DNA of 50,029 nt, from contig CAZDXV010000001.1 in assembly GCA_964509645.1 (NCBI GenBank), positions 81,890 to 131,918 of the forward strand, given 5' to 3'. The notes below the pieces were generated by a model. It had not been told where the DNA came from. It worked only from the letters and a program-made list of their open reading frames with translations, and made no database searches. A program made the translations under genes and the position numbers. This document shows, piece by piece, positions 27,361-45,891 of this stretch. The DNA is from an uncultured Candidatus Saccharibacteria bacterium (lineage in GTDB: Bacteria > Patescibacteriota > Minisyncoccia > Minisyncoccales > GWA2-38-27). Within the stretch, counting starts at the first letter, position 1; each line of letters opens with the position of its first letter.

Positions 27361-27380
27361 ATATTTTAGTTAGTTTTGAG

Positions 27381-29205: not shown

Positions 29206-29209
29206 AATA

Positions 29210-29240
29210 AAAATCTCGGCTTTAGCCGAGATTTTCTTTT
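29210..29240 (+). terminator. Intrinsic terminator
   Basis: aaaatctcggc-ttta-gccgagatttt. Confidence 0.7.
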
Positions 29241-29348
29241 CTCTAGAAGGACGGCAATCCCTTCATCGATCACTTCATAGAAGTATCCGGGCAGCGAGCC
29301 GTGATAGGACTTTCTGCTGTCAGAGAAAATAGATTTTCTGCTCCTCAA
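29238..29348 (-). pseudogene. Possible remnant of a RelE/ParE-type toxin gene
   Basis: The minus-strand translation ...SIFSDSRKSYHGSLPGYFYEVIDEGIAVLLEKRK resembles the C-terminal beta-strands of ParE/RelE toxins (Y-R-x-x-Y-x-V-x-D-x-x-I-x-V-L pattern). The segment is locally GC-richer than its surroundings, and the rest of the track ORF is antisense to the 28843 gene. Confidence 0.25.
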
Positions 29349-29487
29349 AATGGATTGAGAAGTTTAGTGTGGCAAAAGGTAAGAAAGGTGTCAAACGTCT
29401 TTAGCTGCTACGTGATATAGATACCAGACTAATTTTATTATAACAGAACTTGTGAAAGGTAGACGAATTTATTGATAATATTTTTTC

Positions 29488-30210: not shown

Positions 30211-30559
30211 GATTAAACTTAAACCAAGTTATAGCCTTATTTATAAGAAACAATAGGGGAATAAATAACAAAAGAAATAAAAACTTATATTTTAAGGGGA
30301 TAGTTATCTTTTTTTCAGTTATTATTTCTATTATTTTAAGGGTTCCCCACCAGAGAACGCTGATAGTTATTCCTATAATTGGTAAAATGAAAGGCTCTTT
30401 AACTTTAGCACCAAATGCATTAGGCATTATTAAATCGGATAGCAAAAGGCTATTAACTCCAAATAAGATTATGTTAAGTCCTTCCAGCGTTGTGTTGTTT
30501 CCAGGATCTTTCTTCATCCAGAGGTGCCATTTTTCAAGATAGCCTTTAATTTTTCTCAA
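30182..30559 (-). CDS. Hypothetical small polytopic membrane protein
   Basis: 125 aa with 3 hydrophobic segments. Overlaps the downstream gene by 29 nt, so probably co-transcribed. Confidence 0.45.
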   Translation of the reverse strand: MRKIKGYLEKWHLWMKKDPGNNTTLEGLNIILFGVNSLLLSDLIMPNAFGAKVKEPFILPIIGITISVLWWGTLKIIEIITEKKITIPLKYKFLFLLLFIPLLFLINKAITWFKFNHAEQNSNNN

Positions 30560-30723
30560 AGTTGTTATTTAATTTATGGGTTTTAGCATTAGATTGCTTT
30601 CTTTTTAGATATTACACCTCTGATTTTAAAAATCAATGTTTTGTTGCACGTAACAAAACGGAACCTTCTATAATTTGTTGAAAAAGAGATGGAAAAGGAG
30701 TAAGGTGGAATATAAAAAGATTA

Positions 30724-31695
30724 ATGGGTAAACACGAAAGAGAACAAATCGAAAAGGCGGAGAAAATTATTATTAAACTCCTAAATTCTAAAAAAATAAA
30801 TGGTGCTGATAAAAATAATCCTTGGGTCAGCCATACTTTTAATATGGCCGACAGGATCCGAAAGGATTTTTCAAATATTAAAAAAGCCGAGCACTTGGGA
30901 AATCGCTATGACAATACAGGAGATATTCTAATCCTTGCTGATAAAGATGAGTTTTTTATTGAGATAAAAATGAGTGAAACGAAAAAAGGGGTTGGGACTA
31001 AAGCTAATATCGGCCAGGATGCTCTTGCAGATAATAATCTTTTTAAAGGGAACGCTATGAAATGGAGCGATTTTAGAAAAAACAGAAAGCATAATAGGTG
31101 GGTTGATAAATATTTAGACGAATTTATGAGATATCCTAAAAAAGTTCTAAGGATAAAAAACTCTGTTTCAAGAAGGGAAGAGAAAGCTAGGCACTTAAGA
31201 AAATTGCGGAAAAAAGGTAATAAGAAAGCTACAGATATTCTTTTAAGAATTCGTGAAAAAGATAAGAAAGAAAAAATAGATTATTTAAATTATTTAGAAA
31301 GTTTTAAACAAGATAAAGAGAAGATTAGAAGATTTCTTGTTTTAATAATGTTAGGAATTCACAGAAAAGAAACTATTAGAGAATTTATAGAAAATGATAA
31401 TTTTTTGCGGGAAGCCCGGAATCTTTTTGTATATTACAGTAATACCAAAAGAGGAAAAATTATTGTTCGAAGAGAAGATGTAGGAAGCAAGATAAGAAAA
31501 ATACTTAATACTTTTTCGGAATTTAGAATAATTTTTCCTAAAAGGACTACTCATTGTAAATTAATAGGCATAAGAGGGAAAAATCAACAGCCCCTTTTGC
31601 AGATAGTTTTTCACTGGAAAAATATTGCTCAAGGAATTAAAACACCCTGTCTTAATATTTTTGATTTATCAAGTAATATCTTCACTAAATATTAA
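30724..31695 (+). CDS. Putative type II restriction endonuclease (PD-(D/E)XK-like)
   Basis: 323 aa. GDILILADKDEFFIEIKMS fits a D...E-x-K catalytic motif. It converges on, and overlaps by 11 nt, the 3' end of the DNA methyltransferase gene. No closer family recognised. Confidence 0.55.
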   Translation: MGKHEREQIEKAEKIIIKLLNSKKINGADKNNPWVSHTFNMADRIRKDFSNIKKAEHLGNRYDNTGDILILADKDEFFIEIKMSETKKGVGTKANIGQDALADNNLFKGNAMKWSDFRKNRKHNRWVDKYLDEFMRYPKKVLRIKNSVSRREEKARHLRKLRKKGNKKATDILLRIREKDKKEKIDYLNYLESFKQDKEKIRRFLVLIMLGIHRKETIREFIENDNFLREARNLFVYYSNTKRGKIIVRREDVGSKIRKILNTFSEFRIIFPKRTTHCKLIGIRGKNQQPLLQIVFHWKNIAQGIKTPCLNIFDLSSNIFTKY

Positions 31696-33523
31696 TAGGA
31701 AAAAGTTTCTCTAGCTCTGTTTTTGAAATTTGAGTATTTCCTGTAATGTTTTTTATAAATTCTAGTTTTTCCTTAGAGGAAAGTTGACTTGCAATTTTAC
31801 CGAGAGTTATTTTTTTAGAAGCTTTATTTTTTGTAAGTTTCATTCTTATTTGTTTCTGATTAGAAGAAGGAAAAATTACATTTACATGGTTTTCAGCGAT
31901 AAACTTCATTCGCGGAGGTATTACGGCTGCTTTCAACTTGGATGATTTTACAGATCCAGTGATTCTGTTTACTACTATAGCAGGGCCTATATCATAATTA
32001 TTTGTTTTGACATATTGAGGTTTTTTCCTCTCTGCCAATGATAACCTTAGTCCTTTCTCTGTAATATTATGTGCCCAAATCAAAGGGACTCCTTTTTTTG
32101 GATTATTGGTTAGAAGTTCTTTATTTTTATTCCAAACCAATCTTCCTGTTTTTGCCTCAAAATCCAAATCATGGAGCGTGACGCTTTTTTTAAAGGATTT
32201 TTGTAAATATTGAGGGTTTTCGCTAAAAATTAGAATGCCATTTTTTTTGAAAATGTAGTTTCCTTTATTTTTACCCTTTTTAAGGACAATCAACATTGTT
32301 GATTGAAGAGCTTTGTTAAAGAGCTTAGGATCATCTAATACGTGCAAGTATTCAATGTTTGTATTTTCTACTATGTATTCTCTTAATTTGGAAAAATAAG
32401 CTCCGTTGTTCATTGAGGGAGGGACAACATAAGCCAGGCAGCCTCCTTTTTTGAGCCATTTAATTCCTTGATAGATGAATAAACTAAAAATATTTACTCT
32501 TCCGTTGATTATTTCTCTGAATTTATCTTTTATCTCGTCCGATGGAGAAAATTCATAATAGGGGGGATTACCGATTACAAAGTCGTATTTACCGTAGTCT
32601 TCGTTTAATAGGGAATCAGTTTTTTTAATTGTAGCTTCCGGAATAATTTTTCTTGCTATATTAGCTAGGTTTTTATCGATATCCCATCCGAACAGATCAG
32701 GATTTTTGAAGTGTTTTTTAGCTGTGACTAAGAATTCGCCGGTTCCATTGGCAGGATCTAGAATTTTTGGATTGTTTTTATTTTTCGGAAGTTTATCAAT
32801 TAAAGCCTTTCTTATTGATCTGGGGGTGAAATATTGTCCGAATGACTTTCTGTGTTTTATATCTGTTTTTTCCATATATTCTATTGTAGCGTCGTTAAAC
32901 TCTTTTTCTTTTGTTTTTTCTTTTAATTCTTTAAAATTTCGGATGACACTAACAACTTTGCCTTGAATAGCGAGTTCTTTTGTAAAAATGGGTTTGATTT
33001 TGGGATTAGCGGGCTGAAGCCTGAAACCGCCCCTTTCTTTATATATCTTTTTAAGGGTTACTTCGTTTTCATTTATTAAAGCTATAACAGTTTCTTCGTT
33101 TTCAGCAGTTGGCTGTTTTCTAATTACTACAATATCTCCGTTAAAAATTCCTTCCTCAATCATACTATTTCCTTGGACTTTTAAGGCATAATGTCTCCCT
33201 GTTTTTGACAGTTGAGATTTAGAGACTTCTACTGTTTCAGAATCTTCAATAGCCTCAATAGGTTCTCCGGCAGCGATAGTTCCCGCCAGAGGAAGGCTTA
33301 CTAGATTATTTTTTTTATTTCCATTTAATTCTATAGATCTATGCTGGTTTTCGGTTTTTCTCAAGCATCCCTTCTCTTTTAGTGATTCTACGTGTTGGTG
33401 AACCGTAGAAACAGAAGACAACCTAAATTTTCTTTTTATTTCTTCTAAAGAAGGGGAATAATCATTTTCTTCAATATATTCTTCAATATAGTCTAGTATC
33501 TGTTTTTGCCTTTTAGTAAGCAT
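31685..33523 (-). CDS. Fusion protein: full-length LexA repressor (aa 1-197) plus gamma-class N6-adenine DNA methyltransferase (TaqI/Eco57I-like, aa ~215-612)
   Basis: LexA part: the winged HTH (SPSLEEIKRKFRLSSVSTVHQHVESLKEKG), LPLAGTIAAGEP (Ala85-Gly86 cleavage site), VQGNSM (Ser120), VTLKK (Lys158), ending GKVVSVIRNF like the LexA C-terminus. MTase part: FGQYFTP, ILDPANGTGEF (motif I), VIGNPPY (motif IV) and a TaqI_C-like target recognition region. No stop codon occurs between the two parts. Confidence 0.8.
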   Translation of the reverse strand: MLTKRQKQILDYIEEYIEENDYSPSLEEIKRKFRLSSVSTVHQHVESLKEKGCLRKTENQHRSIELNGNKKNNLVSLPLAGTIAAGEPIEAIEDSETVEVSKSQLSKTGRHYALKVQGNSMIEEGIFNGDIVVIRKQPTAENEETVIALINENEVTLKKIYKERGGFRLQPANPKIKPIFTKELAIQGKVVSVIRNFKELKEKTKEKEFNDATIEYMEKTDIKHRKSFGQYFTPRSIRKALIDKLPKNKNNPKILDPANGTGEFLVTAKKHFKNPDLFGWDIDKNLANIARKIIPEATIKKTDSLLNEDYGKYDFVIGNPPYYEFSPSDEIKDKFREIINGRVNIFSLFIYQGIKWLKKGGCLAYVVPPSMNNGAYFSKLREYIVENTNIEYLHVLDDPKLFNKALQSTMLIVLKKGKNKGNYIFKKNGILIFSENPQYLQKSFKKSVTLHDLDFEAKTGRLVWNKNKELLTNNPKKGVPLIWAHNITEKGLRLSLAERKKPQYVKTNNYDIGPAIVVNRITGSVKSSKLKAAVIPPRMKFIAENHVNVIFPSSNQKQIRMKLTKNKASKKITLGKIASQLSSKEKLEFIKNITGNTQISKTELEKLFPINI

Positions 33524-33570
33524 ATTAAGATTATTAACAGCTTAATTTATTATATCATATAATACCGAAA

Positions 33571-33587
33571 GAAAACCGAAAGTTTTC
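33571..33587. promoter_or_regulatory. Palindromic candidate operator GAAAAC-N5-GTTTTC in the LexA-MTase promoter region
   Basis: gaaaaccgaaagttttc lies 48-64 nt upstream of the minus-strand ATG (33523), next to a minus-strand TATAAT (plus-strand attata at about 33550-33555). The form resembles Cheo-type LexA boxes (GAAC-N4-GTTC). Confidence 0.4.
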
Positions 33588-34234
33588 CACATGCTTTTTC
33601 CTTGATTTTATTTCGAGGATCGTGATATATTGGAATAATTAAAAGGGGTTTTAGCCCCGACTACGAAAATTACTCTGTAATCTTCAGCCGGGGTTAACCG
33701 GCTTGTTTAATTTTGTAAATTATATGAGTAAGAAAATAAAACCAAATAAGCCAAAGTTCATGACTGCGGAAAAATCGGTCGATTAGCTTGTAAGTTCTAT
33801 AATTTCATAAGAGAAAAGATTAAGATAGTAGGAGATTCTAAGTAATAAGCTAGATAAAAATGAAAAAAAGTTTAAAAAGTAGAGAACAATTTGTAAAACA
33901 AGTAGCTTATTTTTCTCGGTGCTCAAAAGGGCTTTAAATACGAAGAAATGATTAAATGGATAGATAAAAAACTTAAAAGGGACTGGAATGAGAAAATTAC
34001 TTTACCGAGAGCAAAAATAATAATGCAGAAGAAGTATAAAGCAATAAGCTTAATAATAGATTCTGCAAGGAAATATACTTAAAAAGAACCTAAAATCGGG
34101 AAAAAGGGACAAGTCTCGAATATTCAAGGAATTTGGCTTTTTAATAAAAACTAATTGAAAAAAAAGATTATGAGTTTTAGAAAAGCGGCAATAAAAGTTT
34201 TGGAAAAATTCAAAAGACTTCTTAAAAACTGAAT

Positions 34235-34669
34235 ATGGAACACGTTGCAATAATGAAAAAGTCTTGGGGGTTGCTTCCTAAAATCTTGACAGGAGAAAAA
34301 TCAGTGGAATCTCGTTGGTATAAAAACAGAACTGTTCCTTGGAATAAGATAAAAAGGGGAGATAATGTATATTTTAAGAATTCAGGAGAACCAGTAAAGA
34401 TCAAAACATCTGTTTCGGAGGTTTTACAACTTTCCGAACTTACTCCCGAAGAGGTTAAGAAAATATTATTTAAATACAGGGTCCAAGATGGATTAAAAGC
34501 AGATGAGTTAGATAAATATTATAAATTATTCCGGGATAAAAACTATTGTTTATTGGTATTTCTTAAAAATCCCAAGAAAGTAAAGCCGTTTAAGATAGAT
34601 AAGGCAGGATATGGAACTATGTCTGCCTGGATAACTGTTGATAACATCAAAAAATTAATTAAGAAATAG
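34235..34669 (+). CDS. ASCH-domain protein (PUA-like fold)
   Basis: 144 aa. The N-terminal HVAIMKKSWGLLPKILTGEKSVESRW matches the ASCH pattern (h-h-s-h-k-x-x-h-h-x-x-I-l-x-G-x-K-x-x-E-x-R). Confidence 0.65.
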   Translation: MEHVAIMKKSWGLLPKILTGEKSVESRWYKNRTVPWNKIKRGDNVYFKNSGEPVKIKTSVSEVLQLSELTPEEVKKILFKYRVQDGLKADELDKYYKLFRDKNYCLLVFLKNPKKVKPFKIDKAGYGTMSAWITVDNIKKLIKK

Positions 34670-34942
34670 AATTTATGGGGAAGTTTTCGAAGGAAAATAA
34701 TATTTTTGGGATTAGAAAAAGTTGGCTTTGTAGATTTTTTTTACAAGTTTAACAGCATGTATACAAGTTGCTATACTTTGTATACATTATAAGAAAGATG
34801 TAAACAAACTATTCATGGCAAAAAAGATTAAAATATATTATAAATCTTTTTGGATCATACAAAAGAAATTCGAAAATTAATCAAGAGTAACGGTAGCATC
34901 CATCCCGGGCGAAACTACTTTTAGATCCTCGGCAATAAAAAG

Positions 34943-34971
34943 TCGCCAAAAAGGCGATTTTTTGATAAAAT
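34943..34971 (+). repeat. 29-bp perfect direct repeat, copy 1 (terminator hairpin plus ttgataaaat)
   Basis: tcgccaaaaaggcgattttttgataaaat, identical to 44084-44112. Confidence 0.95.
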
Positions 34972-34979
34972 TATTGTAT

Positions 34980-35606
34980 ATGAGTATAATTTGTATTTTT
35001 GGAGATAGTATTGCTTGGGGAGCTTCTGATTCTGAGAAGGGAGGTTGGGTTGAACGTCTGAAGGTTTTTATGGGGGAAAACTATAACAGCGATGTCTATA
35101 ATCTCGGCATTTCTGGAGATAAGACCCCGAATATTTTAAAAAGATTTAAATTAGAAGCAAAAGCAAGAACAAAAGAAGCAGAAGATGTTGTTTTTATTTT
35201 TGCCATTGGCATCAATGATTCTTGTTTTGTGCGCAGTAAAAATGGTTTAATGATACAGCCGAAAAAATTTAAAGCGAACATAGAAAGGATAATAAAACAA
35301 GCGAAAGCGATAACCCCAAAAATTATTTTTATAGGATTAAATCCGGTTGATGAATCAAAAACCACGCCGATTTCTTGGGACACTGGTAAATCTTATAAAA
35401 ATGAGAATATAAAAAAACATGATGAAATTATAAAACTTATTTGCAAAGAGAAAAAGGTTTATTTTGTTGGAATTTTTAAAAACTGGATAGAGTCAAATTA
35501 TAAAGAATTATTAGAAGATGGCTTGCATCCGAATGTGGCTGGTCACAAAAGAATATTTGAAGCAGTGCAGAGTTTTTTAATTAAGAAAAAAATAATTAAA
35601 ATTTAG
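34980..35606 (+). CDS. SGNH/GDSL-family hydrolase
   Basis: The N-terminus MSIICIFGDSIAWG (GDS block I), GINDS (block III) and DGLHPN (block V, DxxH). ATG 34980 is preferred over TTG 34962. Confidence 0.8.
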   Translation: MSIICIFGDSIAWGASDSEKGGWVERLKVFMGENYNSDVYNLGISGDKTPNILKRFKLEAKARTKEAEDVVFIFAIGINDSCFVRSKNGLMIQPKKFKANIERIIKQAKAITPKIIFIGLNPVDESKTTPISWDTGKSYKNENIKKHDEIIKLICKEKKVYFVGIFKNWIESNYKELLEDGLHPNVAGHKRIFEAVQSFLIKKKIIKI

Positions 35607-35990
35607 CCAATTAATTTTGGAAAAAATAACCCAAAATTTAAAAATTAATTTAAAAATCCCACCGGCAGAGCAAAGTACATTACGAAGGGAGTAAAAAATA
35701 TAGAAAAGAAAAATAATAAGGAATTTTTTCATGTATTGTACCCTCCGCAATGTATTCTGCAAAATAACCTTGAAAATTATTAAAATTTTTAATATACTGA
35801 ACAATATAATAATAACCAAATTCAAAAAAGGTCAATGGAATTCTAAATATAAAACAGAAATAATTGTCTTATTAATACAATAAAAAGACATAAGCAAAAA
35901 TTAAAGATTAACGAAAAACAGCTTGGTGTTATAAAATGTATATCTTGAACAAAAGTATCCTAACAATTAAAAAATAAGGAAATAAATAGA

Positions 35991-37322
35991 ATGGAAAGAA
36001 TTTTAAGCGCAGAAATAACAAAACATATAGGCAAAACGGTAAAGCTCTCTGGCTGGGTTGATTCCATAAGGTCTCATGGAAAGATTGTTTTTATTGATCT
36101 TCGTGATAGGAGTGGAATTGCACAATTGGTTTGCGTTCCACAAAATAAAGAAGTTTACGAACTTGTCAAAAAGGTTCATCCCGAGTGGGTAATAACAGTG
36201 ACTGGATTTGTATCTAAGCGACCACCAAAAATGATAAACCCAAAGATAAAAACTGGAGAAGTGGAAATTTCTTCAAAAGAAATAAAGATACTTTCCGAAG
36301 CCGAAACTCCGCCTATTCCAGTATGCCAAGAAGAAATTCAAGAATCTAACATCGATAAAAGAATGGGTTGGAGATGGCTTGATTTGAGGAGATCAGAAAA
36401 ACGCCTAATTTTTGAAGTATGGACAACTATGGAACAGGGATGGCGGGAATATCTCATGAAACAAGAATATATCGAAATATATTCGCCCAAACTAATGAAC
36501 GCCCCCAGTGAATCGGGAGCCGAGCTATTCGAAGTTGATTATTTCGATCAAAAAGCCTATTTAGCTCAATCTCCTCAATTCTATAAGCAAATGGCAATGG
36601 CTGCTGGTTTCGAAAAAGTATTTGAATTTGCTCCTGCATTCAGGGCAGACCCCTCTTTTACCTCAAGACATTGCACAGAATTTACATCTTATGATGCAGA
36701 GATTTCTTTTATAGAATCTCATCAAGATGTTATGCATGCTTTAGAAGAAATGATTGTTGCTACTCTTTCTGCTGTCGAGAAAAAACACGGCCAAGAAATT
36801 GAGCAGGCTTATGGAAGAAAATTAGTTGTTCCTACAATTCCATTTCCTCAAGTTACAATGATGCAGGCAAAAAAAATACTTCAAGAATTAGGGATACCCA
36901 GCAAAGAAAGAGGAGATCTTAGTCCCGAAGAAGAAAGAGCTCTTAGCGAGTATATATTAAAAGAAAAAGGGCATGAATTTGTATTTGTGACGGAATATCC
37001 ATCGACGGTTCGCCCCTTTTATCATATGAGACTAGAAACTGACCCAAGTCTTACTAAAAGCTTTGATCTTCTATGGAATGGATTGGAAATTACCACTGGC
37101 GCACAAAGGGAACATAGATACAATATTCTAAAAAAGCAAGCTCAAGAAAAGGGTATAGATTTTGAACAGATTCGTAACTATTTGAATTTTTTTAGATATG
37201 GCTGTCCTCCTCATGGGGGATTCGGACTTGGCCCTTCACGAATGTTGATGAAAATTCTGAACCTGGATAATATACGAGAAACTACATTTATTTATCGAGG
37301 CGTGAAAAGACTAACTCCTTAA
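35991..37322 (+). CDS. aspS: Aspartyl-tRNA synthetase, archaeal/eukaryote-type short form (class IIb)
   Basis: 443 aa. N-terminal OB anticodon-binding domain (GWVDSIRSHGKIVFIDLRDRSG), LAQSPQFYKQ, motif 2 FRADPSFTSRHCTEFTSYDAE, motif 3 GGFGLGPSRMLM, C-terminal RLTP. Asp versus Asn specificity is judged from the QSPQ block only. Confidence 0.75.
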   Translation: MERILSAEITKHIGKTVKLSGWVDSIRSHGKIVFIDLRDRSGIAQLVCVPQNKEVYELVKKVHPEWVITVTGFVSKRPPKMINPKIKTGEVEISSKEIKILSEAETPPIPVCQEEIQESNIDKRMGWRWLDLRRSEKRLIFEVWTTMEQGWREYLMKQEYIEIYSPKLMNAPSESGAELFEVDYFDQKAYLAQSPQFYKQMAMAAGFEKVFEFAPAFRADPSFTSRHCTEFTSYDAEISFIESHQDVMHALEEMIVATLSAVEKKHGQEIEQAYGRKLVVPTIPFPQVTMMQAKKILQELGIPSKERGDLSPEEERALSEYILKEKGHEFVFVTEYPSTVRPFYHMRLETDPSLTKSFDLLWNGLEITTGAQREHRYNILKKQAQEKGIDFEQIRNYLNFFRYGCPPHGGFGLGPSRMLMKILNLDNIRETTFIYRGVKRLTP

Positions 37323-37335
37323 CTCAAAGTTAAAT

Positions 37336-37366
37336 AACCTGCGATATCTCCCGCAGGTTATTTTTT
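37336..37366 (+). terminator. Intrinsic terminator after aspS
   Basis: aacctgcg-atatctcc-cgcaggtt followed by a and T6. Confidence 0.75.
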
Positions 37367-37396: not shown

Positions 37397-38614
37397 ATGC
37401 GTTATAATGCGAAACAAATGAAAGGCAAAAATACCATAAGATTTCCGAATTATTTAAACGGCAAAACTATTACCGTGCCCTTTAATAACGACTTTAAACT
37501 TATCTCTAAGTTAGGAGAATTATTAAAACCTCCTTTGCCATTTGAAATATCTATTTATTTTGCACCTAATCCTTTAATATCTACTGCAGGAAGGCGATTT
37601 CCTGGTTATGAAAATTTTATAGAAAAGCATAAAAAATTTCAAAATAATAAATTCAATCAGATATTAATTAAAGCATTAAAGGAAGCAAAAAGTTATGGAT
37701 TTACAACTAATCTATTATTAAATAATATTTTACTAGGAATGGCTCATGACAATAAAACACTTGTTCGTGATATTAAAAAAATTCAGAATTATCTAGAAAG
37801 ATTATACAAAACAGGATATTTAGACAAAGTGACTATCGGTAATCCTTATTTATTAGAACTTATCAATTGGAATAAACTAAAAAATCTTGAGATAAAGACA
37901 TCTGTTAATTTTCAAATTAAAAATGCGAAAACAATTGAGATATTAAATATACTTTCTGATAATTGGTTAGAGAAAAATAGATTAACCACCATTGAAATAC
38001 AAAAAGATTTATTACGAGATTTAGAAATATTAAAAAAAATAAAGAAAACAATAAAAGACAAAATAAAACTCTCGATTATTATTAATGAAGGATGTATAAC
38101 TAGTTGTCCATATCAATTGGTTCATCAAATTCATGCTTTCACTACACCCATAGATGCGTTACCCTGTTTTAATAAAGATTTCAAATTTGCTATTGCGAAG
38201 TGTAAATATATTACACGTTCTGCTCCTTGGAAAATCTTTGATTCAAATTGGATTTTGCCGGGACATCTAAAATATTATAAAAATTTAATTGATGAATTTA
38301 AACTAACTGATAGAAATGATTCAACAGAAATAATTTTAAATACTGTAAGAGCTTATATCAGTGGCCAATATGACAAAAAGAATTTATGCAAATTGATAAG
38401 TTTATTGAATATGGAGGAGTTTTTATTTCCAGAATCTGTTCTTGGAAAAAACTTTTTTAAAAAAATTACTTCGGATAGAAAACCCAGTGATAAGTATTAT
38501 AAAAAACTTTGGGAAAAACTAGTAATTTATAATAAAAACAAGGGTGTGAAAGGCGGTATAAAAATCAAAGGTTTACACAAAAGTAATTTACACCATTTTA
38601 TTGGGAATTATTAA
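37397..38614 (+). CDS. Cys-rich hypothetical protein, possibly a peptidase-U32-like TIM barrel (Fe-S?)
   Basis: 405 aa. The order of blocks (NLLLNN..., KVTIGNPYLLELI, LEIKTSVNFQIKN, IIINEGCITSCPY, later CKY) resembles the U32 family layout, but the PROSITE U32 signature is not matched exactly. No CxxxCxxC. Confidence 0.3.
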   Translation: MRYNAKQMKGKNTIRFPNYLNGKTITVPFNNDFKLISKLGELLKPPLPFEISIYFAPNPLISTAGRRFPGYENFIEKHKKFQNNKFNQILIKALKEAKSYGFTTNLLLNNILLGMAHDNKTLVRDIKKIQNYLERLYKTGYLDKVTIGNPYLLELINWNKLKNLEIKTSVNFQIKNAKTIEILNILSDNWLEKNRLTTIEIQKDLLRDLEILKKIKKTIKDKIKLSIIINEGCITSCPYQLVHQIHAFTTPIDALPCFNKDFKFAIAKCKYITRSAPWKIFDSNWILPGHLKYYKNLIDEFKLTDRNDSTEIILNTVRAYISGQYDKKNLCKLISLLNMEEFLFPESVLGKNFFKKITSDRKPSDKYYKKLWEKLVIYNKNKGVKGGIKIKGLHKSNLHHFIGNY

Positions 38615-38636
38615 TATCTAAAATATCTATGTTGCA

Positions 38637-39968
38637 ATGTTGATTGATAGTTGTGCCAAAATTAGTAAAATATCTAAGACACCTATTAAAAAAAAGGTGG
38701 ATTATATTATAAATATAGAATCTAATCCTTCAAAATGGGATAGAATTTTGTCTGTTAACTATAAAAATATTTTTATAGCAATAGGTATTTCACCGGAAAG
38801 AGCGATTATTTACAATAATGAAATAGAAAAAAAATTATTAAAATTGATTAAAAAAAATAAAATAATTGCTATAGGAGTGATCGGATTAGATTATCGTAAT
38901 AAAAAAGCGTCTAAAAATATTCAAAAAAAGATTTTTCAAAGACAACTTGTTTTAGCAAAAGAAAACAATTTACCAGTAATCATATCTTGCCTAAACTCCT
39001 ATCAAGATTGCTATGAGATTTTAAAAAAGATTTATAAAGATAAAGATAAAATAAAAGGAGTTATAAATTTTAGTTCTGAAAATGAGAAACAAATTAAATC
39101 TTTTATCGATTTCGGCATGTTTGTTTCTTTTTCTGGCGATATTATATCTAGAAAAAATAAAAAAGCAGCAAAAATTATACCCTTAATTCCTCAGAATAAA
39201 TTATTGATACGAAGTCTAAATTTTAAAAATAAGAATGAAGACTATAGTAAACTTATTTCTAGCATTAAAAAATCCTTGGAGAAAATTGCTTTAATAAGAA
39301 AAAAAATTAGCGTTGAGGATATTGCTAGAATAGTTAGTTATAACGCTATTTCCCTTTTTCGATTACCTGTTGAGTTAAAAGATAAATACACATACAAAAT
39401 AAGAAATTCTCTTTATATCAATTTAACCAATAGATGTACTAATAAATGTGATTTTTGTCCGCGCCTTGAAGAGCCAGTCGTTAAAGGATATTACTTAGAA
39501 TTAAAAAAAGAACCTACAGCTAAAGAAGTAATCAAGGAAATAGATGATCCTAAAAAATTTGACGAAATTGTTTTTTGTGGCTATGGAGAACCAACAATAC
39601 GACTGAGAACAATGAAAAAAATAGCTAAATGGATTAAAAAAAATGGCGGTAAGACAAGGCTTAATACTAATGGGCTTGGCAGTCTTATCGCGGGTTATAA
39701 TGTAGTTCCTCAACTAAAAGGATTATTTGATACAATTTCTGTAAGTTTAAATTTTCACAATAAAAATTTATATTTAAAACATTGTCATCCTATTTTTGGT
39801 GAAAAAACATGGAAGGGAATATTAACATTTATAGAAGAAACCAAAAAAGTCACTCCTAAAGTTGTTCTGACTGTGGTCGAGAAATATAAAGATGTAGACG
39901 TAAATAAATGCCAAAAAATAGCAAATAGATTAAAAGTTGATCTCAGAAAAAGAACTTATTATGAGTAA
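38637..39968 (+). CDS. Fusion: degenerate TatD-like domain (aa ~1-240) plus radical SAM domain (aa ~255-443, 'TatD-associated radical SAM' type)
   Basis: The TatD-like blocks are present but substituted: LIDSCAK (vs DxHxH), AIGVIGLDY (vs GExGLD), PVIISCL (vs PvviHxR), VINFSS (vs HCF), LLIRSLN (vs lLlETDxP). C-terminal: LYINLTNRCTNKCDFC (CxxxCxxC), VFCGYGEPT, RLNTNG. Confidence 0.65.
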   Translation: MLIDSCAKISKISKTPIKKKVDYIINIESNPSKWDRILSVNYKNIFIAIGISPERAIIYNNEIEKKLLKLIKKNKIIAIGVIGLDYRNKKASKNIQKKIFQRQLVLAKENNLPVIISCLNSYQDCYEILKKIYKDKDKIKGVINFSSENEKQIKSFIDFGMFVSFSGDIISRKNKKAAKIIPLIPQNKLLIRSLNFKNKNEDYSKLISSIKKSLEKIALIRKKISVEDIARIVSYNAISLFRLPVELKDKYTYKIRNSLYINLTNRCTNKCDFCPRLEEPVVKGYYLELKKEPTAKEVIKEIDDPKKFDEIVFCGYGEPTIRLRTMKKIAKWIKKNGGKTRLNTNGLGSLIAGYNVVPQLKGLFDTISVSLNFHNKNLYLKHCHPIFGEKTWKGILTFIEETKKVTPKVVLTVVEKYKDVDVNKCQKIANRLKVDLRKRTYYE

Positions 39969-40803
39969 AAAGGAAATAAATATCCCCTTTGCCGCAATTC
40001 AATTAACCAGTAGATGTAATTTAAATTGTGATTTCTGTTTTCGACGTCTTAACATAGATGAAGTTTCTTTTAATCAAATAAAGGAGGTCATAAAAAAATT
40101 AGCAGAATATAACACAACAACTTTAGTGTTGTCAGGAGGTGAGCCTCTTTTAGTTAAGGATATTAAAAAAATATTAAAATTTGCGAGAAATTTAGGAATA
40201 AAAACCGTTCTTCAATCAAATGGAATTTTATTGAAGAGAAAACTAAACTCTTTCGCCCCTTACATTAATTGGATTTCCCTTTCATTAGATGGTTATAATG
40301 AGCAAACTAATGCAACAATGAGAAGCTCTAAACAACTTAGAGCCACTATAGAAGTTCTTCCTTTGATTAAAAAACATAATATCAAAATAAAATTAGGAAC
40401 AGTTGTAACTAAGAAAAATTATAAGAATATTAAAGACATCGGAAAATTAATTCAACCGTATGTCACAATCTGGAAGTTATATCAATTCTATCCGAGAGCG
40501 CATACTTGTGCTCATAAAAATAAAAATCAGTTTATTATTGATGATCGCACTTTTTTGAAAATAGCTAAACAAATCCGTCGTGCCTTCCCTAAGCTATCCA
40601 TTTCAACTCATTCGGTTAAAGAATTTGATAAAAGCCCGTGTCTTTTAATGAATCCAAATGGAGATGTTTATATTACTCAAAATGCCAAAGATTACTTTAT
40701 TGGGAATTTAGTCAAAAAGCCAGATAAATTTGTTGAAAATTACAGAAAAATGAATATTTTCTCAGAGATAAATAAAAACTTTAATAAAACTTATAAAGAT
40801 TAA
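39961..40803 (+). CDS. Small radical SAM enzyme (no SPASM domain; viperin/MoaA-like core)
   Basis: LTSRCNLNCDFCF (CxxxCxxC), LSGGEPLL, LQSNG, SLSLDG, KLGTVV, then IWKLYQFYP, which resembles the viperin RWKVFQ block. ATG 39961 overlaps the upstream stop (ATGAGTAA). Confidence 0.7.
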   Translation: MSKKEINIPFAAIQLTSRCNLNCDFCFRRLNIDEVSFNQIKEVIKKLAEYNTTTLVLSGGEPLLVKDIKKILKFARNLGIKTVLQSNGILLKRKLNSFAPYINWISLSLDGYNEQTNATMRSSKQLRATIEVLPLIKKHNIKIKLGTVVTKKNYKNIKDIGKLIQPYVTIWKLYQFYPRAHTCAHKNKNQFIIDDRTFLKIAKQIRRAFPKLSISTHSVKEFDKSPCLLMNPNGDVYITQNAKDYFIGNLVKKPDKFVENYRKMNIFSEINKNFNKTYKD

Positions 40804-40807
40804 AAAT

Positions 40808-41440
40808 ATGAAAAATCGTGGCCAATACGACAGTGAATATAAAAATTGTTCTTGTTTCTGGGGATCTGATCCAAGCAAGTATGTCAAATTAATACCCAAT
40901 TATATTTCCTCGGGGCGAGTTCTTGATTTAGGAGCTGGAGAAGGTAAAAATAGTTTTTATCTTGCTTCATTGGGATTTAGGGTAGTAGCAATTGATGTGT
41001 CTTTATACGCTATCAGAAATTTTATCAATAGAGCGATTAAGGAAAGCGATAATAAGAAATCAAAAGTTGAAAACATTGATATAATATATGCTGATATAAC
41101 AGATTGGCCTCTGGCTGATAAATTCGATGTTGTAATATCTTACGGACTTTTACATTGTTTAAATTCCGAAAAAGAAATAGCCTTGCTAATAAAAAAAATG
41201 AAAGTAGCAACCAAAAAAGAGGGGATAAATGTAATTTGCACTTTTACTAATGAACTAGGAATACCCAAAATACAAGACTATCTCAATCCGACGCTCTTGT
41301 CTAAAACGGCTTTAAAGAAAAAACATTATAATGATTGGCAAATACTTAATTACGAGTCTGATATAATTGAACATAAGCATCCTACTTTTAACAAATTACA
41401 TAAACATAGCGTTTGTAGAATGATAGCAAGAAAAAAATGA
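40808..41440 (+). CDS. Class I SAM-dependent methyltransferase, TehB-like
   Basis: VLDLGAGEGKNSFYLASLGFRVVAIDVS (motif I plus an acidic residue at the end of beta-2), DVVISYGLLHCL. Confidence 0.75.
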   Translation: MKNRGQYDSEYKNCSCFWGSDPSKYVKLIPNYISSGRVLDLGAGEGKNSFYLASLGFRVVAIDVSLYAIRNFINRAIKESDNKKSKVENIDIIYADITDWPLADKFDVVISYGLLHCLNSEKEIALLIKKMKVATKKEGINVICTFTNELGIPKIQDYLNPTLLSKTALKKKHYNDWQILNYESDIIEHKHPTFNKLHKHSVCRMIARKK

Positions 41441-41444
41441 ATTA

Positions 41445-42929
41445 ATGTTGAAAATTATCAATAATATTAAGAAATCTATTAAGGAGAGTTTTTTTGATGA
41501 TAAATCTTCGCGGGAAATAAGGAAATGGATTATAGGTAATATAAAATTTAAGAATTCTATCTCTTATAGAGAGGCTTCTTATGCCGTAATGAACCCTACT
41601 GATTTTTGTCCAGTTGGTTGTCCTTATTGTATGTACTCTTCACATAAATTTAAAAAATCTAGAATTAGTAAAAAGCTAATGCAATCTTTCGTTAAAATTG
41701 CTAATCAAGCAAAATTAAAAATGCTTGTATTTTCCGGAGGTGGGGAACCGTTTGAAAATCTAGAGCAAATGTTACAAGCAATTGAAAACATTGAATCTCT
41801 AAAAGATGTAATCATAATAAGTAGTGGTTATTTTGCTAAAAATCCTAAAACTACCAAAGATATCCTAGATAAAATTTATAATGTTGCTAATATTGGAAGG
41901 CAAAGAAAAAATTTTGGAAAAGTGACTATTACCTTAAGAGTTAGCCGAGATTCTTCTCAGTGTAAAGTTATTCCGCTCGAAAATTTAGTTAATATAATAA
42001 ATTATACAATTAGGAAAAACGACTCTTCAAAAATTCGTATTTTAATAAGAACAATATTAAGTTACAGGGAAAATGAGGATTTAAAATTAGCCAAAAAATT
42101 AAATTTTAATCTATTACCCCAGAAAGATAAAAAGAATATTTATAAAAATTTACCTATTATTGATGGACTTCCGACAAGGTGGCTAATAGATAAAAAAGAA
42201 AAAATAGAAATTCCTATAATTTATAAACCATTATATTTTATGGGAAGAGCTAAAAATAAAAATGCTCGAAATAGATATTCTTTATGGAAAATTATTAAAT
42301 CAGAGAAGAGATCAGGTACTTCCTTTAATCCATGCATAAGAGGGCCTAAGGGTGAAGGGCACAATTATTACGAAACTATTCTAAATGGTTATTATTTTTG
42401 GAAAAGAAATATTAAAAAAATAATATATGATACTCCAAAATATAAAACCAGAAAGGAATTAGCACTATATGTTCCAGCGTCTGGCAATATTTTAATTAAT
42501 AATGGAGTACCCGATATTGCTCCGAATCTTAATAAAATAAAAAGTTGGCCCCAATTTTTAAAAATAATCTATAATGATCCTGTTCAAAGATTATTAATTG
42601 AGAAAGGCCCTTTTTTTATTAAATCTATTGCCGAAGAAGTTGAAGAGAATCTAGCTACAAAAATAGAAAAAACTAATTTTGTGTTTGCAGTTTCCTTATT
42701 TAGCTTAAAAACATCATCATTAAGATTATATATTACCTTGCGTGCATTACAATATTATTATAAAAATAATCAAATAAAAATTAATAAGTCTTTGATTAGA
42801 AAATTAGTAGAAACAGATAGAAAGTATTATATAAATTTATATAATAAATGGAAAAATCGCTTTGGTAATAAAGTAATTGAAAAACCATCTATTGATCCTA
42901 TAACTGGAGATACTTCAAGTCTTTTTTAA
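41445..42929 (+). CDS. Large radical SAM protein with a long uncharacterised C-terminal extension
   Basis: NPTDFCPVGCPYCMY (CxxxCxxC) and FSGGGEPF. 494 aa. No second Cys cluster typical of SPASM or twitch domains is visible. Confidence 0.65.
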   Translation: MLKIINNIKKSIKESFFDDKSSREIRKWIIGNIKFKNSISYREASYAVMNPTDFCPVGCPYCMYSSHKFKKSRISKKLMQSFVKIANQAKLKMLVFSGGGEPFENLEQMLQAIENIESLKDVIIISSGYFAKNPKTTKDILDKIYNVANIGRQRKNFGKVTITLRVSRDSSQCKVIPLENLVNIINYTIRKNDSSKIRILIRTILSYRENEDLKLAKKLNFNLLPQKDKKNIYKNLPIIDGLPTRWLIDKKEKIEIPIIYKPLYFMGRAKNKNARNRYSLWKIIKSEKRSGTSFNPCIRGPKGEGHNYYETILNGYYFWKRNIKKIIYDTPKYKTRKELALYVPASGNILINNGVPDIAPNLNKIKSWPQFLKIIYNDPVQRLLIEKGPFFIKSIAEEVEENLATKIEKTNFVFAVSLFSLKTSSLRLYITLRALQYYYKNNQIKINKSLIRKLVETDRKYYINLYNKWKNRFGNKVIEKPSIDPITGDTSSLF

Positions 42930-43008
42930 AAAATATTTAAAGGATATGATTTACTAAAGAGAAAACCAATACAAGATTTACAGGATTTTTTAAAAACATT
43001 AAAACACG

Positions 43009-44016
43009 ATGTATAAAATTAGACCCAATTATAAAATTAATATTAGTAATACCGATATTAACAAAATAGAAAAAATTATTTTCAGGGAAATTGGGTTTAA
43101 AATTAAATTAATAAAAGATAATTCTAATTTAAGAGGTAAAATTTTTAAAACATCTTTTTCAAAGAGAAAACAATATTTTTTAAAGCTTGAACCAGTTAAT
43201 TATTATTCTGAAGCAGAAATTTTAGAAGGAATTCGGAAAATATCAGATCTGCCAGTGCCTAAAGTTATTTGGTATAAAACACGGATATGTAAAGATTATC
43301 ACGCTTTTCTTCTTGAAAGATTGTCGGGTCAAACATTAAACAAAGTTCTGCTTGCGGATAAAAAAAGTTCTCATCATATAGCTAAATTGATAGGGCAAAT
43401 TCTGGCTAAAATTCATTCATTTAAATTTGATACACAAGGATTGCTTAACCGAAAAGGGGAATTAAGAAAAATCTCAGAATCTATCGATAATTTAGTTGGT
43501 GAAAATCTAAAATATTCTTTCGGAATCATTAATGAAAATTATAAATGGTGTAAGAAAAATAAAGTTGACATCAAGGAAAGTTTTTTGTACTCATTTGATA
43601 TTATTAAGAGATTAAAAAAATCAAACAATAAAAAACTTTGTCTTCTGCATGGAGATCTGAAACCATCACATTTTTTCATCAGCAAGGAGAATAGTTACAG
43701 TTATAATGTTTCTGGAATTATTGATTGGGAAGAGTCAATAATTGGAAATCCAGCGTTAGATATAGCTCATTTATTTTTCCAATCCGAGCCCGAAGATCTA
43801 ATTTTTTTAAAAAACGTGTGGAATTCTTATAAAAAATCAACTGATTTTATTCCAACAATACACTGCATCTCAAATTATTTTTTACTGACTTTTTTAATTC
43901 ATTTATCGTATTATGCCGAATATAATATAAAACTACCGGACAGAATGTATCAATTGACAAAAAATCTCAATAGCATTGATACTATAAACAAGTTTTTTAA
44001 CAGAATTTTAGAATAA
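43009..44016 (+). CDS. APH/ChoK-family phosphotransferase (kinase)
   Basis: LCLLHGDLKPSHFFI (Brenner HxDxxxxN-like catalytic loop) and IIDWEESIIGNPALDIAH (DxE/DFG-equivalent). Confidence 0.75.
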   Translation: MYKIRPNYKINISNTDINKIEKIIFREIGFKIKLIKDNSNLRGKIFKTSFSKRKQYFLKLEPVNYYSEAEILEGIRKISDLPVPKVIWYKTRICKDYHAFLLERLSGQTLNKVLLADKKSSHHIAKLIGQILAKIHSFKFDTQGLLNRKGELRKISESIDNLVGENLKYSFGIINENYKWCKKNKVDIKESFLYSFDIIKRLKKSNNKKLCLLHGDLKPSHFFISKENSYSYNVSGIIDWEESIIGNPALDIAHLFFQSEPEDLIFLKNVWNSYKKSTDFIPTIHCISNYFLLTFLIHLSYYAEYNIKLPDRMYQLTKNLNSIDTINKFFNRILE

Positions 44017-44083
44017 ATATATATGCAGAAAATTCAGACAAAAACAAGGAAATATATTTAAAAGAAACCTAAGAGATTTAAAA

Positions 44084-44112
44084 TCGCCAAAAAGGCGATT
44101 TTTTGATAAAAT
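44084..44112 (+). repeat. 29-bp perfect direct repeat, copy 2
   Basis: tcgccaaaaaggcgattttttgataaaat, identical to 34943-34971 and 9141 bp downstream of it. Confidence 0.95.
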
Positions 44113-44124: not shown

Positions 44125-44241
44125 ATGAAAAAATATTCTTGTAAAAGAGCCAAAAAAGGAAAAACTGCATATCGGACGCCAAGCAAGTTTATTTACAAGA
44201 AAGCTTTAAAGTCCAAAAAGAATAAAGTTAGAAAAAAATAG
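44125..44241 (+). CDS. Possible 38-aa highly basic peptide
   Basis: MKKYSCKRAKKGKTAYRTPSKFIYKKALKSKKNKVRKK. It is below the ORF-track cutoff, has no convincing SD, and lies between repeat copy 2 and the helicase gene. Confidence 0.2.
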   Translation: MKKYSCKRAKKGKTAYRTPSKFIYKKALKSKKNKVRKK

Positions 44242-44262: not shown

Positions 44263-45891
44263 ATGACTCAAGAACAGGCATTAAATATATTAAAGCTTGG
44301 ATATAATGTATTTTTAACAGGCGCTCCCGGAAGCGGGAAAACTTTTCTGTTAAATAAATACATTGATTATTTAAAAGATAACGGAAAAGGCGCAGCAATT
44401 ACAGCTTCTACGGGTATTGCCGCTACTCATATGGGAGGAGTAACAATACATTCTTTTACGGGTATGGGCATTAAAGAAAGCTTAAATGATGGAGATATTA
44501 GGAAATTACAGAGAAGGCCTTATCTTAGAAAAAGATTTCGGAAAACCAATGTTCTTGTAATTGATGAAATTTCAATGCTTCATAGCTTTCAATTTGACTT
44601 GATTGACCGGATTTGTCGGGCTTTTAAAAACAGATTGAAGCCCTTTGGCGGAATGCAGGTTGTTTGTTCCGGGGATTTGTTTCAGCTTCCTCCAGTTCAA
44701 AAAACAAGGGAAACAGCTCATTTTGTTGTTGAGTCGGAAGCATGGAAGAATATGGGTATAAAGGTTTGCTACTTAGAAGGGCAGTATCGCCAGAAAGGAG
44801 GAGACTTATCTCTTTTGCTTAACTGTATTCGCAATAATGCAGTTGAAGAGGCAAGGGCGATATTGTTTAATGTAAAGCGCGAAAAAGGCGCTTTCTCTAT
44901 TGCTCCGACAAAATTATACACCCATAATATAGATGTGGATATTATTAATAATGCTGAATTGAGCAAAATAGACGAAAAGGAATTCGTCTATTATATGCAT
45001 TCAAGGGGCAATGAAAAGATTGCTTCTTTTTTGCGAAAGAATTGTTTGGCTCCCGAAGAATTAGTGCTTAAAAGGGGAGCTAAGGTAATGTTTGTAAAAA
45101 ATAACTTTGATGAAGGTTATGTTAACGGCACCTTGGGTAAAGTGATAGACTTTGACGAAGGAGGTCTGCCGGTTGTAAAAACATTTTCTGGCAATCATAT
45201 TGTCGCTGACTCTGCAAGATGGACGCTTGAAGAAGACGGGCAAGTTAAAGCTGAGGTCAGTCAAATTCCTCTTCGCCCTGCCTGGGCGATAACAGTCCAT
45301 AAAAGCCAGGGTATGAATCTTGATGCTGCGGAAATTGATCTTTCTAAGTCCTTTATTAGGGGTATGGGCTATGTTGCCTTATCTCGATTAAGACAATTTT
45401 CCGGATTAAAGCTTTTAGGGATTAACGAAACAGCTCTTTTAATAAATCAAGAGATATTAGAATTAGATAAAACCTTTAAGCAAATGTCTAAAAAAGCAGT
45501 TAAAGAGCTTGAGAGTTTCTCTTATGAGAAAAAAGAAAAAGAGCAAAGAAAGTTTCTGTCTTCTTTGCCTGAAAGTGGAAAGGGCAAAAGGAAAAATCAT
45601 ATTTCTACCCACAAACAAACCAAATCTCTTATTGAGGATAAATTATCCATAAAAGAGATTGCCAAAAAGAGAGGTCTGAATGAAAATACTATTTTGCAGC
45701 ATTTAGAGAAAATGGTAGCTAACGGAGAAAGGATTGATTTAGAATACTTAAAAATGCCAGAAGAGCGTTTTGAGCAGATAAAAACGGCATTTGAAGAGAT
45801 AGGAGATTATAAATTAAAACCGGTGCGGGAAGTTCTTGGACAAGGTTTTTCTTATCAAGAATTAAGATTAGCTCGCTTATTTATCCAATAA
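44263..45891 (+). CDS. PIF1/RecD-like SF1B DNA helicase with a C-terminal HTH/HRDC-like tail
   Basis: VFLTGAPGSGKTF (Walker A), VLVIDEISM (Walker B), GDLFQLPPV, ITVHKSQG. The C-terminal LSIKEIAKKRGLNENTILQHLEKM block is typical of Pif1-family helix-turn-helix tails. Confidence 0.85.
   Translation: MTQEQALNILKLGYNVFLTGAPGSGKTFLLNKYIDYLKDNGKGAAITASTGIAATHMGGVTIHSFTGMGIKESLNDGDIRKLQRRPYLRKRFRKTNVLVIDEISMLHSFQFDLIDRICRAFKNRLKPFGGMQVVCSGDLFQLPPVQKTRETAHFVVESEAWKNMGIKVCYLEGQYRQKGGDLSLLLNCIRNNAVEEARAILFNVKREKGAFSIAPTKLYTHNIDVDIINNAELSKIDEKEFVYYMHSRGNEKIASFLRKNCLAPEELVLKRGAKVMFVKNNFDEGYVNGTLGKVIDFDEGGLPVVKTFSGNHIVADSARWTLEEDGQVKAEVSQIPLRPAWAITVHKSQGMNLDAAEIDLSKSFIRGMGYVALSRLRQFSGLKLLGINETALLINQEILELDKTFKQMSKKAVKELESFSYEKKEKEQRKFLSSLPESGKGKRKNHISTHKQTKSLIEDKLSIKEIAKKRGLNENTILQHLEKMVANGERIDLEYLKMPEERFEQIKTAFEEIGDYKLKPVREVLGQGFSYQELRLARLFIQ

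Follow-up and report, generated by a model that had tools for sequence, protein, structure and literature searches.

Six adjoining genes, among them three for radical S-adenosylmethionine (radical-SAM) enzymes, lie directly downstream of the aspartyl-tRNA synthetase (AspRS) gene aspS in a stretch of 50,029 nucleotides (nt) from an uncultured Candidatus Saccharibacteria bacterium (contig CAZDXV010000001.1), which was analysed as a whole and is called the window below. The best explanation is that they form a rare, horizontally mobile biosynthetic cluster of bacteria of the candidate phyla radiation (CPR). The cluster probably encodes a pathway that tailors a free pyrimidine nucleotide and is functionally coupled to AspRS. 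By analogy with known antibiotic clusters it could make an antimetabolite directed at AspRS, with AspRS copies that are self-protecting or biosynthetic, which we regard as a serious possibility, somewhat short of a probable one. The proposal in its full form is tentative and more doubtful: a mobile CPR pathway would use three radical-SAM enzymes to produce a novel cytidine nucleotide modified at C5 and at the ribose, this nucleotide would act as an AspRS-directed antimetabolite, and xenologous AspRS would be the immunity factor and/or biosynthetic partner. Profile, structure and literature searches matched the gene set to no described pathway, as the original prediction for this block had anticipated, and the literature held nothing on TIGR04038, on TatD together with radical SAM and viperin, or on a viperin-like enzyme with thymidylate synthase in Patescibacteria.

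Comparison with 17 retrieved loci (designated by L numbers below) from about 13 lineages, the named ones being CPR bacteria, separates a core from its partners. The core is a trio of genes which recurs in all of these lineages and encodes a viperin-like radical-SAM enzyme, a SAM-dependent methyltransferase and an EpeE-like radical-SAM enzyme of 450-530 amino acids (aa), the signature enzyme, whose identity across loci falls to 33%. Two architectures are built on it. In type A (the window, L003-L008, L013 and L014) a U32-like protein, with or without a fusion of TatD and radical-SAM domains, accompanies the viperin-like enzyme, the TehB-like methyltransferase and the signature enzyme, which is 494 aa long in the window. 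In type B (L001, L002, L009-L012 and L015) homologues of the viperin-like enzyme (28% identity, E value 7e-36) and of the methyltransferase (25% identity, E 3e-15) stand with the signature enzyme and a protein of the thymidylate synthase (ThyA) fold. The U32-like and ThyA-fold proteins are thus alternative fourth members, and the fusion and the kinase of the window are optional, the kinase being found outside the window only in L006/L007. The original prediction had described an orphan six-gene operon; six genes on one strand with spacings of 22, -8, 4, 4 and 79 nt are indeed what the open reading frame (ORF) coordinates give (Table 1), but conservation of the genes together holds for the core trio and not for the whole set of six.

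The cluster is rare. Of 185,579 genomes representing species, four have the signature gene; three of these are labelled as CPR bacteria (Saccharibacteria twice, Staskawiczbacteria once) and the fourth as Bacteroidetes. The 494-aa enzyme has 34 relatives in 5.8e9 proteins, and an exhaustive profile search of 1.84e9 representatives returned 45 proteins with E<1e-30, of which some 20 are full length. In most loci the GC content of the cluster departs from that of its flanks. The six genes of the window have 26-31% GC overall and 17-25% at third codon positions (GC3), compared with 35-41% and 27-39% in the flanking genes, so the earlier description of an AT-rich block holds, but the figure of 47% GC given for the backbone is a local spot value. 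The lineage of L013 (12.3 kb) uses an SR1/Gracilibacteria-type genetic code, because all genes of the locus can be read through only with UGA as glycine (table 25) and the database translations have tryptophan at positions where homologues have an invariant glycine.

The most consistent feature of the system is its linkage to AspRS, which changes its likely biology. aspS belongs to the conserved unit, contrary to the first description, which had left it outside the block. An AspRS gene is present near the cluster in every locus, and in 11 lineages it lies at most about 0.7 kb away, be it upstream, downstream, convergent or divergent; in L002 and L012 it is of the bacterial type and lies 4-6 kb from the cluster. 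The aspS product of the window reaches 484.9 bits with the NCBIfam model NF003483 (cutoff 353) and has the QSPQ motif and intact motifs 2 and 3, and every AspRS copy tested with NCBIfam passes, by the curated cutoff, as a non-discriminating enzyme of the archaeal type. The AspRS adjacency survives rearrangement between loci whose signature proteins are 33-40% identical, which argues for functional coupling and not for inherited synteny.

Two or three class IIb synthetase genes surround the cluster in L001, L004/5, L010/11 and L013. Two synthetase paralogue clades are kept across L001, L010/11 and L013, and a divergent AsnRS-like (asparaginyl-tRNA synthetase-like) gene is present in L001 and L013. 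Some of the extra copies deviate in composition: GC3 is 59% in L004 and 25-34% in neighbouring genes, 75% in L010 compared with 30-50%, the cluster itself having 56-66%, and 27-28% in L013 compared with about 10%. The paired or triple AspRS/AsnRS-like genes at L004 5854-7206, L010 12655-15423 and L013 7185-9828, with one copy strongly deviant in GC3, look like recent horizontal acquisitions in very small genomes. Degenerate AspRS paralogues were considered as well and dropped, as the catalytic motifs are intact in all copies. In L004/5 and L013 the AspRS genes have S66 peptidase genes as neighbours, whose products fall into the MccF clade: they match MccF and MccF-like structures with E values of 1e-42 to 1e-116 and LdcA with only 1e-13 to 1e-19. 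In L017 an efflux-type transporter of the major facilitator superfamily (MFS) lies between the signature gene and that of AspRS.

All three CxxxCxxC motifs listed in the original prediction (CTNKCDFC, CNLNCDFC and CPVGCPYC) are present, and the proteins which carry them score 49.0, 82.1 and 30.8 bits with Pfam Radical_SAM (PF04055; gathering score 29.5), the last value being that of the 494-aa enzyme. The 280-aa core enzyme with CNLNCDFC also contains the predicted IWKLYQF block (motif WKLYQF), and across the radical-SAM core, WKxFQ strand included, no solved family is closer to it than the viperins. Searched against the PDB, the family profile retrieved viperins or viperin-like enzymes as its best nine matches (E 7e-24 to 1e-20), followed by Tes (2e-19), and it also resembles the cytosylglucuronate decarboxylase BlsE (E 9e-18). 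The PADLOC models of prokaryotic viperins (pVips) match the window protein with E 6e-34, and the core enzyme with values down to 2e-37. The kinship called viperin-like therefore stands as nearest solved family, but identity with viperins does not: the protein reaches 109.2 bits with the NCBIfam viperin model NF038283, below the curated cutoff of 180, two type-B homologues reach 51.4 and 43.2 bits, and the profile alignment to viperins ends at about position 207 of 280, leaving unaligned about 70 residues of the C-terminal region, the part that in viperins binds the triphosphate of the NTP. The enzyme thus shares with pVips the radical-SAM core with its WK(L/V)(Y/F)Q motif, but it differs from them in its score and divergent C-terminal region, and in that its gene sits in a multi-enzyme, AspRS-linked operon without a nucleotide kinase.

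In the 494-aa enzyme, which carries CPVGCPYC, an EpeE/YydG-like core is joined to a novel, highly conserved C-terminal half. The best PDB match of its AlphaFold2 (AF2) model (mean confidence, pLDDT, 84) is the peptide epimerase EpeE (E 3e-7, template modelling (TM) score 0.65-0.69); EpeE/YydG is also its best match among curated models, and RlmN is matched weakly. Just three cysteines, those of the radical-SAM motif, are conserved in the family, and the motifs RGxxGEGHNYYE, NFVF and DPIxG are invariant or nearly so. No SPASM domain match was obtained, as had been noted from the window alone, and neither this family nor that of the 280-aa enzyme has a conserved extra cysteine cluster. In the metagenomic protein P0162 (1879 aa) a full-length homologue of the enzyme is part of one polypeptide with an HD domain and a DUF218 domain. 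A nucleotidyltransferase domain was considered for the middle region of P0162 on account of an HxGH-like motif seen by eye, and was rejected since Pfam gave it no support.

The third radical-SAM motif (CTNKCDFC) was rightly recognised at the outset, but it had been missed that its protein, the second of the block, also has a degenerate TatD-like domain (residues ~1-245; Pfam TatD_DNase, E 1.9e-35) in front of a small radical-SAM domain (~250-443) which matches TIGR04038 with 250 bits over residues 251-441 (cutoff 129.7). Alignment to TatD structures shows that, of the metal ligands, the bridging Glu has become V, the two His have become S and N, HxH has become CxK (in the N-terminal motif DSCAK) and the Asp is gone, and the TatD part is shortened in L014 and almost gone in L008. 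As judged from these residues, the TatD domain is catalytically dead. Loss of the ligands and truncation in relatives together indicate that it is vestigial and that the radical-SAM half is the functional part.

In the U32-like protein Pfam Peptidase_U32 (PF01136) matches residues 126-183 only, with 16 bits and E 0.0076, under the gathering cutoff of 22.4, and the family profile had no match among PDB sequences; fold comparison alone gave one, the AF2 model (pLDDT 84) having as top PDB match the U32 peptidase Mk0906 (5D88; E 1e-6, TM 0.67 on the target). The family has 46 relatives in 5.8e9 proteins, and C233, C237 and C269 are its only invariant cysteines. We regard it as a putative Fe-S hydroxylase, possibly dependent on prephenate. 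TrhP and RlhA are U32 proteins that need prephenate to hydroxylate a pyrimidine at C5, the target being U34 of tRNA for TrhP and C2501 of rRNA for RlhA (PMC6599085, PMC5727448). The resemblance to TrhP, RlhA, UbiU and UbiV lies in the U32 fold, in conserved cysteines and in the presence of chorismate mutase near relatives' clusters, while the sub-cutoff Pfam score, the limitation to three invariant cysteines and the missing chorismate mutase gene of the window set the protein apart. Four type-A lineages (L004/5, L006/7, L008 and L014) have a chorismate mutase gene next to the cluster; that of L006 is situated inside the operon, at the place of the 79-nt gap of the window. On the cluster flanks of L014 (2934-6080 and 12850-13586) we also observed genes for shikimate kinase, an AroA-like fragment, chorismate synthase and chorismate mutase, and this partial late-shikimate route appears to be dedicated to prephenate supply.

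Type-B clusters have, where the window has this protein, a ThyA-fold protein with 102 bits to the cytidine monophosphate (CMP) 5-hydroxymethylase MilA (5B6D/5JNH) and at most 39 bits to thymidylate synthases, and its catalytic Cys aligns. Two analogous routes for functionalising C5 are thus exchanged on the same core, which indicates a pyrimidine substrate, and the relationship to MilA points to a free cytidine nucleotide. MilA-like genes were found in the sister architecture only and not in the window. A pyrimidine-nucleotide substrate also agrees with the kinship to viperins, which use nucleoside triphosphates (NTPs), with the HD fusion in P0162, and with the neighbouring genes, which include one of the Nudix family behind the signature gene of L013, those for CYTH, Ham1 and pyrophosphatase proteins beside the clusters of L004 and L014, a HIT gene in L001 and a phosphoribosyltransferase gene in L006. 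The earlier preference for small-molecule nucleotide chemistry over peptide maturation is supported by the MilA-like partner, the viperin kinship and the Nudix, HD, CYTH and Ham1 neighbours or fusions. Likeness to the mildiomycin and blasticidin pathways (MilA, BlsE/MilG) extends to the MilA-like CMP 5-hydroxymethylase of type B and to the BlsE-like core radical-SAM enzyme; in contrast to those pathways, the CPR clusters have no MilB/BlsM nucleosidase, CGA synthase, aminotransferase or ATP-grasp genes, and the window has a U32-like protein in the place of the MilA-like enzyme.

The methyltransferase of the window is a TehB-like, class I SAM-dependent enzyme (Pfam TehB 71.9 bits, cutoff 20.4), and for its type-B homologue the best NCBIfam match is CmoB, a weak one of 28.7 bits. 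A role as CmoA-type synthase of carboxy-S-adenosylmethionine (cxSAM) was considered for the TehB-like protein and discarded, there being no CmoA model among the 25 NCBIfam matches listed (weakest E 1.1e-3). The last gene encodes a kinase of the APH fold (Pfam APH, PF01636, 62.5 bits, cutoff 23.2) whose translation contains HGDLKPSH, in keeping with a catalytic loop of the HGD...N type, and IDWE. In the PDB it matches APH(2'')-Id best (E 2e-6), the class V lanthipeptide kinase LxmK is matched weakly, and no curated resistance or equivalog model of NCBIfam was reached, which leaves it without a specific assignment. It is not a nucleotide kinase of the viperin type, so that the earlier idea of a viperin-associated kinase is not supported.

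A sequence of steps can be proposed from these family resemblances. In the window type, C5 of the pyrimidine would be hydroxylated by the U32-fold Fe-S protein with the use of prephenate, and in the sister type it would be functionalised by the MilA-like CMP 5-hydroxymethylase. The TehB-like methyltransferase might then cap or methylate the C5 product, after which the viperin-like enzyme would attack the ribose, abstracting its 4'-H in a reaction of the dehydration type. The EpeE-like 494-aa enzyme and the small TIGR04038 radical-SAM enzyme could carry out further radical steps, e.g. epimerisation or rearrangement, and the APH-type kinase could phosphorylate an intermediate or the product. The product may be an aminoacyl-adenylate-like antimetabolite which targets AspRS or is completed by an AspRS, and the adjacent AspRS may be an insensitive self-protecting copy, a supplier of activated aspartate, or both, which would mirror AbmK and AbmF of albomycin biosynthesis.

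Nucleoside antimetabolite clusters with copies of the target synthetase are known, while the present enzyme set, its interchangeable C5 modifiers and its CPR hosts are without precedent. Albomycin contains a cytidine-derived mimic of seryl-adenylate, and its cluster encodes the radical-SAM enzyme AbmJ, the methyltransferase AbmI, the kinase homologue AbmG and two seryl-tRNA synthetase (SerRS) homologues, of which AbmK provides immunity and a supply of aminoacyl-adenylate and AbmF performs condensation (PMC9032320). The likeness to this system (SB-217452, abm, Streptomyces) lies in the cytidine-derived scaffold, in the combination of radical SAM, methyltransferase and kinase, and in the homologues of the target synthetase within the cluster, the CPR clusters carrying one to three AspRS-type genes, some of them xenologous. 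It is a likeness of gene classes, and the radical-SAM enzymes are unrelated in family (here viperin-like, EpeE-like and TIGR04038); moreover, the target would be AspRS and not SerRS, the host belongs to the CPR, and the clusters contain no pyridoxal phosphate enzymes (AbmH, AbmD), carbamoyltransferase or siderophore module. Microcin C is an AspRS inhibitor to which MccF, an S66 peptidase, or MccH, a HIT hydrolase, gives immunity and which an MFS pump exports; in its cytidine-type variant, also directed at AspRS, a carboxymethyl group is derived from SAM and prephenate via cxSAM (PMC8323819). AspRS as the target, a cytidine nucleotide in variants and prephenate-dependent tailoring would be common ground, and MccF-clade peptidases, a HIT protein, an MFS pump and chorismate mutase occur near CPR clusters. 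In contrast, the precursor MccA and the ThiF-like MccB were found in no CPR locus (Pfam lists and an ORF scan of the gaps), and microcin C clusters are without radical-SAM enzymes. We know of no microcin C producer in which an AspRS copy serves as immunity.

Several points weigh against an AspRS-directed antimetabolite. Gene content, conservation, family and fold assignments, AspRS linkage and compositional anomalies were observed directly, but every enzymatic step is drawn from resemblance of family or fold, and what the product is and what it acts on are likewise inferred. No enzyme which would join aspartate to the nucleotide was identified, nor is there an MccB/ThiF-like, ATP-grasp or AbmH/AbmD-like gene in any locus. 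The AspRS copies, all with canonical catalytic motifs, bear no sequence mark of a resistance or biosynthetic role, and the window shows one AspRS of native-like composition. It is known that two types of AspRS together with AsnRS serve tRNA-dependent asparagine synthesis in Thermus and Deinococcus, so extra AspRS copies need not mean resistance. No MccF-like, HIT, CYTH, Nudix or exporter gene is present in the window, which also has no chorismate mutase gene, and an exporter gene was found in one locus only. The S66, HIT, CYTH and Nudix families belong to the common stock of housekeeping genes, and CYTH, with close homologues in L004 and L014, does not provide independent evidence from these two loci. 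CPR genomes, to our knowledge, are not known as producers of nucleoside antibiotics.

A modification of tRNA(Asp)/tRNA(Asn), e.g. a hypermodified U or C of the anticodon loop (hydroxylated at C5, methylated and altered further by radical chemistry) to which co-inherited AspRS and AsnRS-like enzymes would be adapted, would explain why the cluster stands in a neighbourhood of Asx-tRNA charging, with AspRS everywhere and AsnRS-like genes in L001 and L013. The characterised U32 pyrimidine-C5 hydroxylases TrhP and RlhA use RNA as substrate and require prephenate, CmoB is the top, though weak, curated match of the type-B methyltransferase, the signature enzyme weakly matches RlmN, and relatives of TatD are RNA and DNA exonucleases. 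We nevertheless consider this explanation unlikely. The TatD domain of the fusion is catalytically dead, enzymes of the MilA/ThyA family and viperins use free mononucleotides or NTPs, and neither a transglycosylase nor another insertion enzyme is present. No tRNA gene adjoins any of the clusters, which likewise led us to rule out a dedicated tRNA of a pyl-like system. The rarity (four of 185,579 genomes) and foreign composition would be unusual for a core function of translation, and the MFS pump, MccF-like peptidases and Nudix, HD and Ham1 partners better suit a small molecule.

Still less likely, in our opinion, is antiviral defence of the viperin type, in which phage polymerases would be blocked by a chain terminator, a decorated 3'-deoxy-3',4'-didehydro nucleotide made from a cellular NTP, with the kinase and the other enzymes feeding or decorating it. 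The viperin kinship and pVip matches described above fit it, as do the patchy distribution, the foreign composition and some neighbours of defence type: L004 has a restriction-modification methylase and an HKD+Snf2 protein, L001 a mad3/LmuB-like ATPase and L012 a NACHT protein. The core enzyme, however, misses the curated viperin threshold (109 against 180 bits, and 43-51 in type B) and its last ~70 residues do not align with viperins. Known pVips act alone or with a kinase and not with three further enzymes, a CMP/UMP-type nucleotide kinase is absent, and defence of this kind leaves the universal AspRS linkage, the MccF-like peptidases and the efflux pump unexplained. Maturation of a ribosomally synthesised and post-translationally modified peptide (RiPP), an unrecognised short precursor being epimerised, cross-linked, methylated or phosphorylated, is suggested by the nearness of the signature enzyme to the peptide epimerase EpeE/YydG in both structure and curated model, by the weak LxmK match of the kinase and by generic matches to sactipeptide maturases. 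That would call for a precursor, and the earlier statement that none is recognisable was confirmed on a wider basis, as a search of ten loci, in the gaps between the cluster genes and at the sides of the cluster, found no conserved small ORF. SPASM or auxiliary cysteine clusters are likewise lacking, genes for RiPP recognition elements, proteases or leader-type peptides do not recur across loci, and the recurrent partners are nucleotide enzymes, which makes this explanation highly improbable. The interpretation given with the original prediction, which had favoured nucleotide chemistry without AspRS, is thus partly supported, and we prefer tailoring of a free pyrimidine nucleotide coupled to AspRS.

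The features of the block are collected in Table 1. As first described, the block begins behind a terminator of aspS and closes with a terminator that is also a repeat: the closing hairpin has a second copy at 34939-34963, with about 33 bp in common and one mismatch, for which the chance expectation is none. In L006 the homologous pair of the aspS and first cluster genes is 18 nt apart and has no gap holding a hairpin. The real start of the U32-like ORF may be at Met8, in line with the 398 aa of the database gene calls and with a promoter-like -10 element lying across 37397. An Rfam scan found no riboswitch or known RNA element in or beside the cluster.

Table 1. Coordinates of the cluster genes, aspS and terminator-like hairpins in the window
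Feature	Position	Strand	Remark
aspS	35991-37322	+	archaeal-type non-discriminating AspRS
Terminator-like hairpin between aspS and first cluster gene	37332-37363	+	12-pair stem, then T run
U32-like ORF	37397-38614	+	405 aa; alternative start Met8 = 37418
TatD/radical-SAM fusion ORF	38637-39968	+	
Viperin-like ORF	39961-40803	+	280 aa; alternative TTG start 39937
TehB-like methyltransferase ORF	40808-41440	+	
494-aa radical-SAM ORF	41445-42929	+	
APH-family kinase ORF	43009-44016	+	
Terminator-like hairpin closing the block	44080-44104	+	one of two copies of a ~33-bp repeat

Some further features of the surroundings were observed. Positions 27000-36000, upstream of aspS, are AT-rich (28-33% GC) and hold many ORFs without Pfam matches; together with the cluster they make up a low-GC region of about 17 kb which contains both copies of the hairpin repeat (34939 and 44080). 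Right after the closing hairpin and a -10-like TAAAAT follows a highly basic ORF of 38 aa (44125-44241, + strand; MKKYSCKRAKKGKTAYRTPSKFIYKKALKSKKNKVRKK), which may be a small ribosomal-protein-like gene and is not kept beside the cluster in other loci. Directly downstream, 44263-45891 (+ strand) encodes a PIF1/RecD-like helicase with a C-terminal HTH_40 domain and moderate matches to defence-associated RecD-like models. A 612-aa protein encoded at 31685-33523 on the minus strand consists of a complete LexA (DNA-binding domain and S24 peptidase) fused to an Eco57I/MmeI-type N6 DNA methyltransferase domain, an unusual fusion which suggests that SOS-type self-cleavage controls the methylase. At 22935-23081 ARAGORN placed tRNA-Gly(CCC) and tRNA-Thr(CGU) back to back with zero spacer.

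The interchangeable C5 modifiers, U32-like with chorismate mutase or MilA-like, amount to a natural experiment on the substrate of the pathway. If the proposed explanation is true, the cluster would represent a new chemical class of nucleotide antimetabolites directed at aminoacyl-tRNA synthetases, and viperin-like radical chemistry would have been recruited to multi-step biosynthesis and secondary metabolism, beyond stand-alone antiviral defence. Prephenate-dependent hydroxylation by U32 proteins would be extended from RNA and quinones to a free nucleotide. Should the cluster act on tRNA instead, it would be a new hypermodification of tRNA(Asp/Asn) that co-evolves with its synthetase. As an antimetabolite pathway, it would be the first pathway for an inhibitor of aminoacyl-tRNA synthetases from the CPR and the first concrete case of specialised chemical warfare or self-protection in these ultra-small bacteria.

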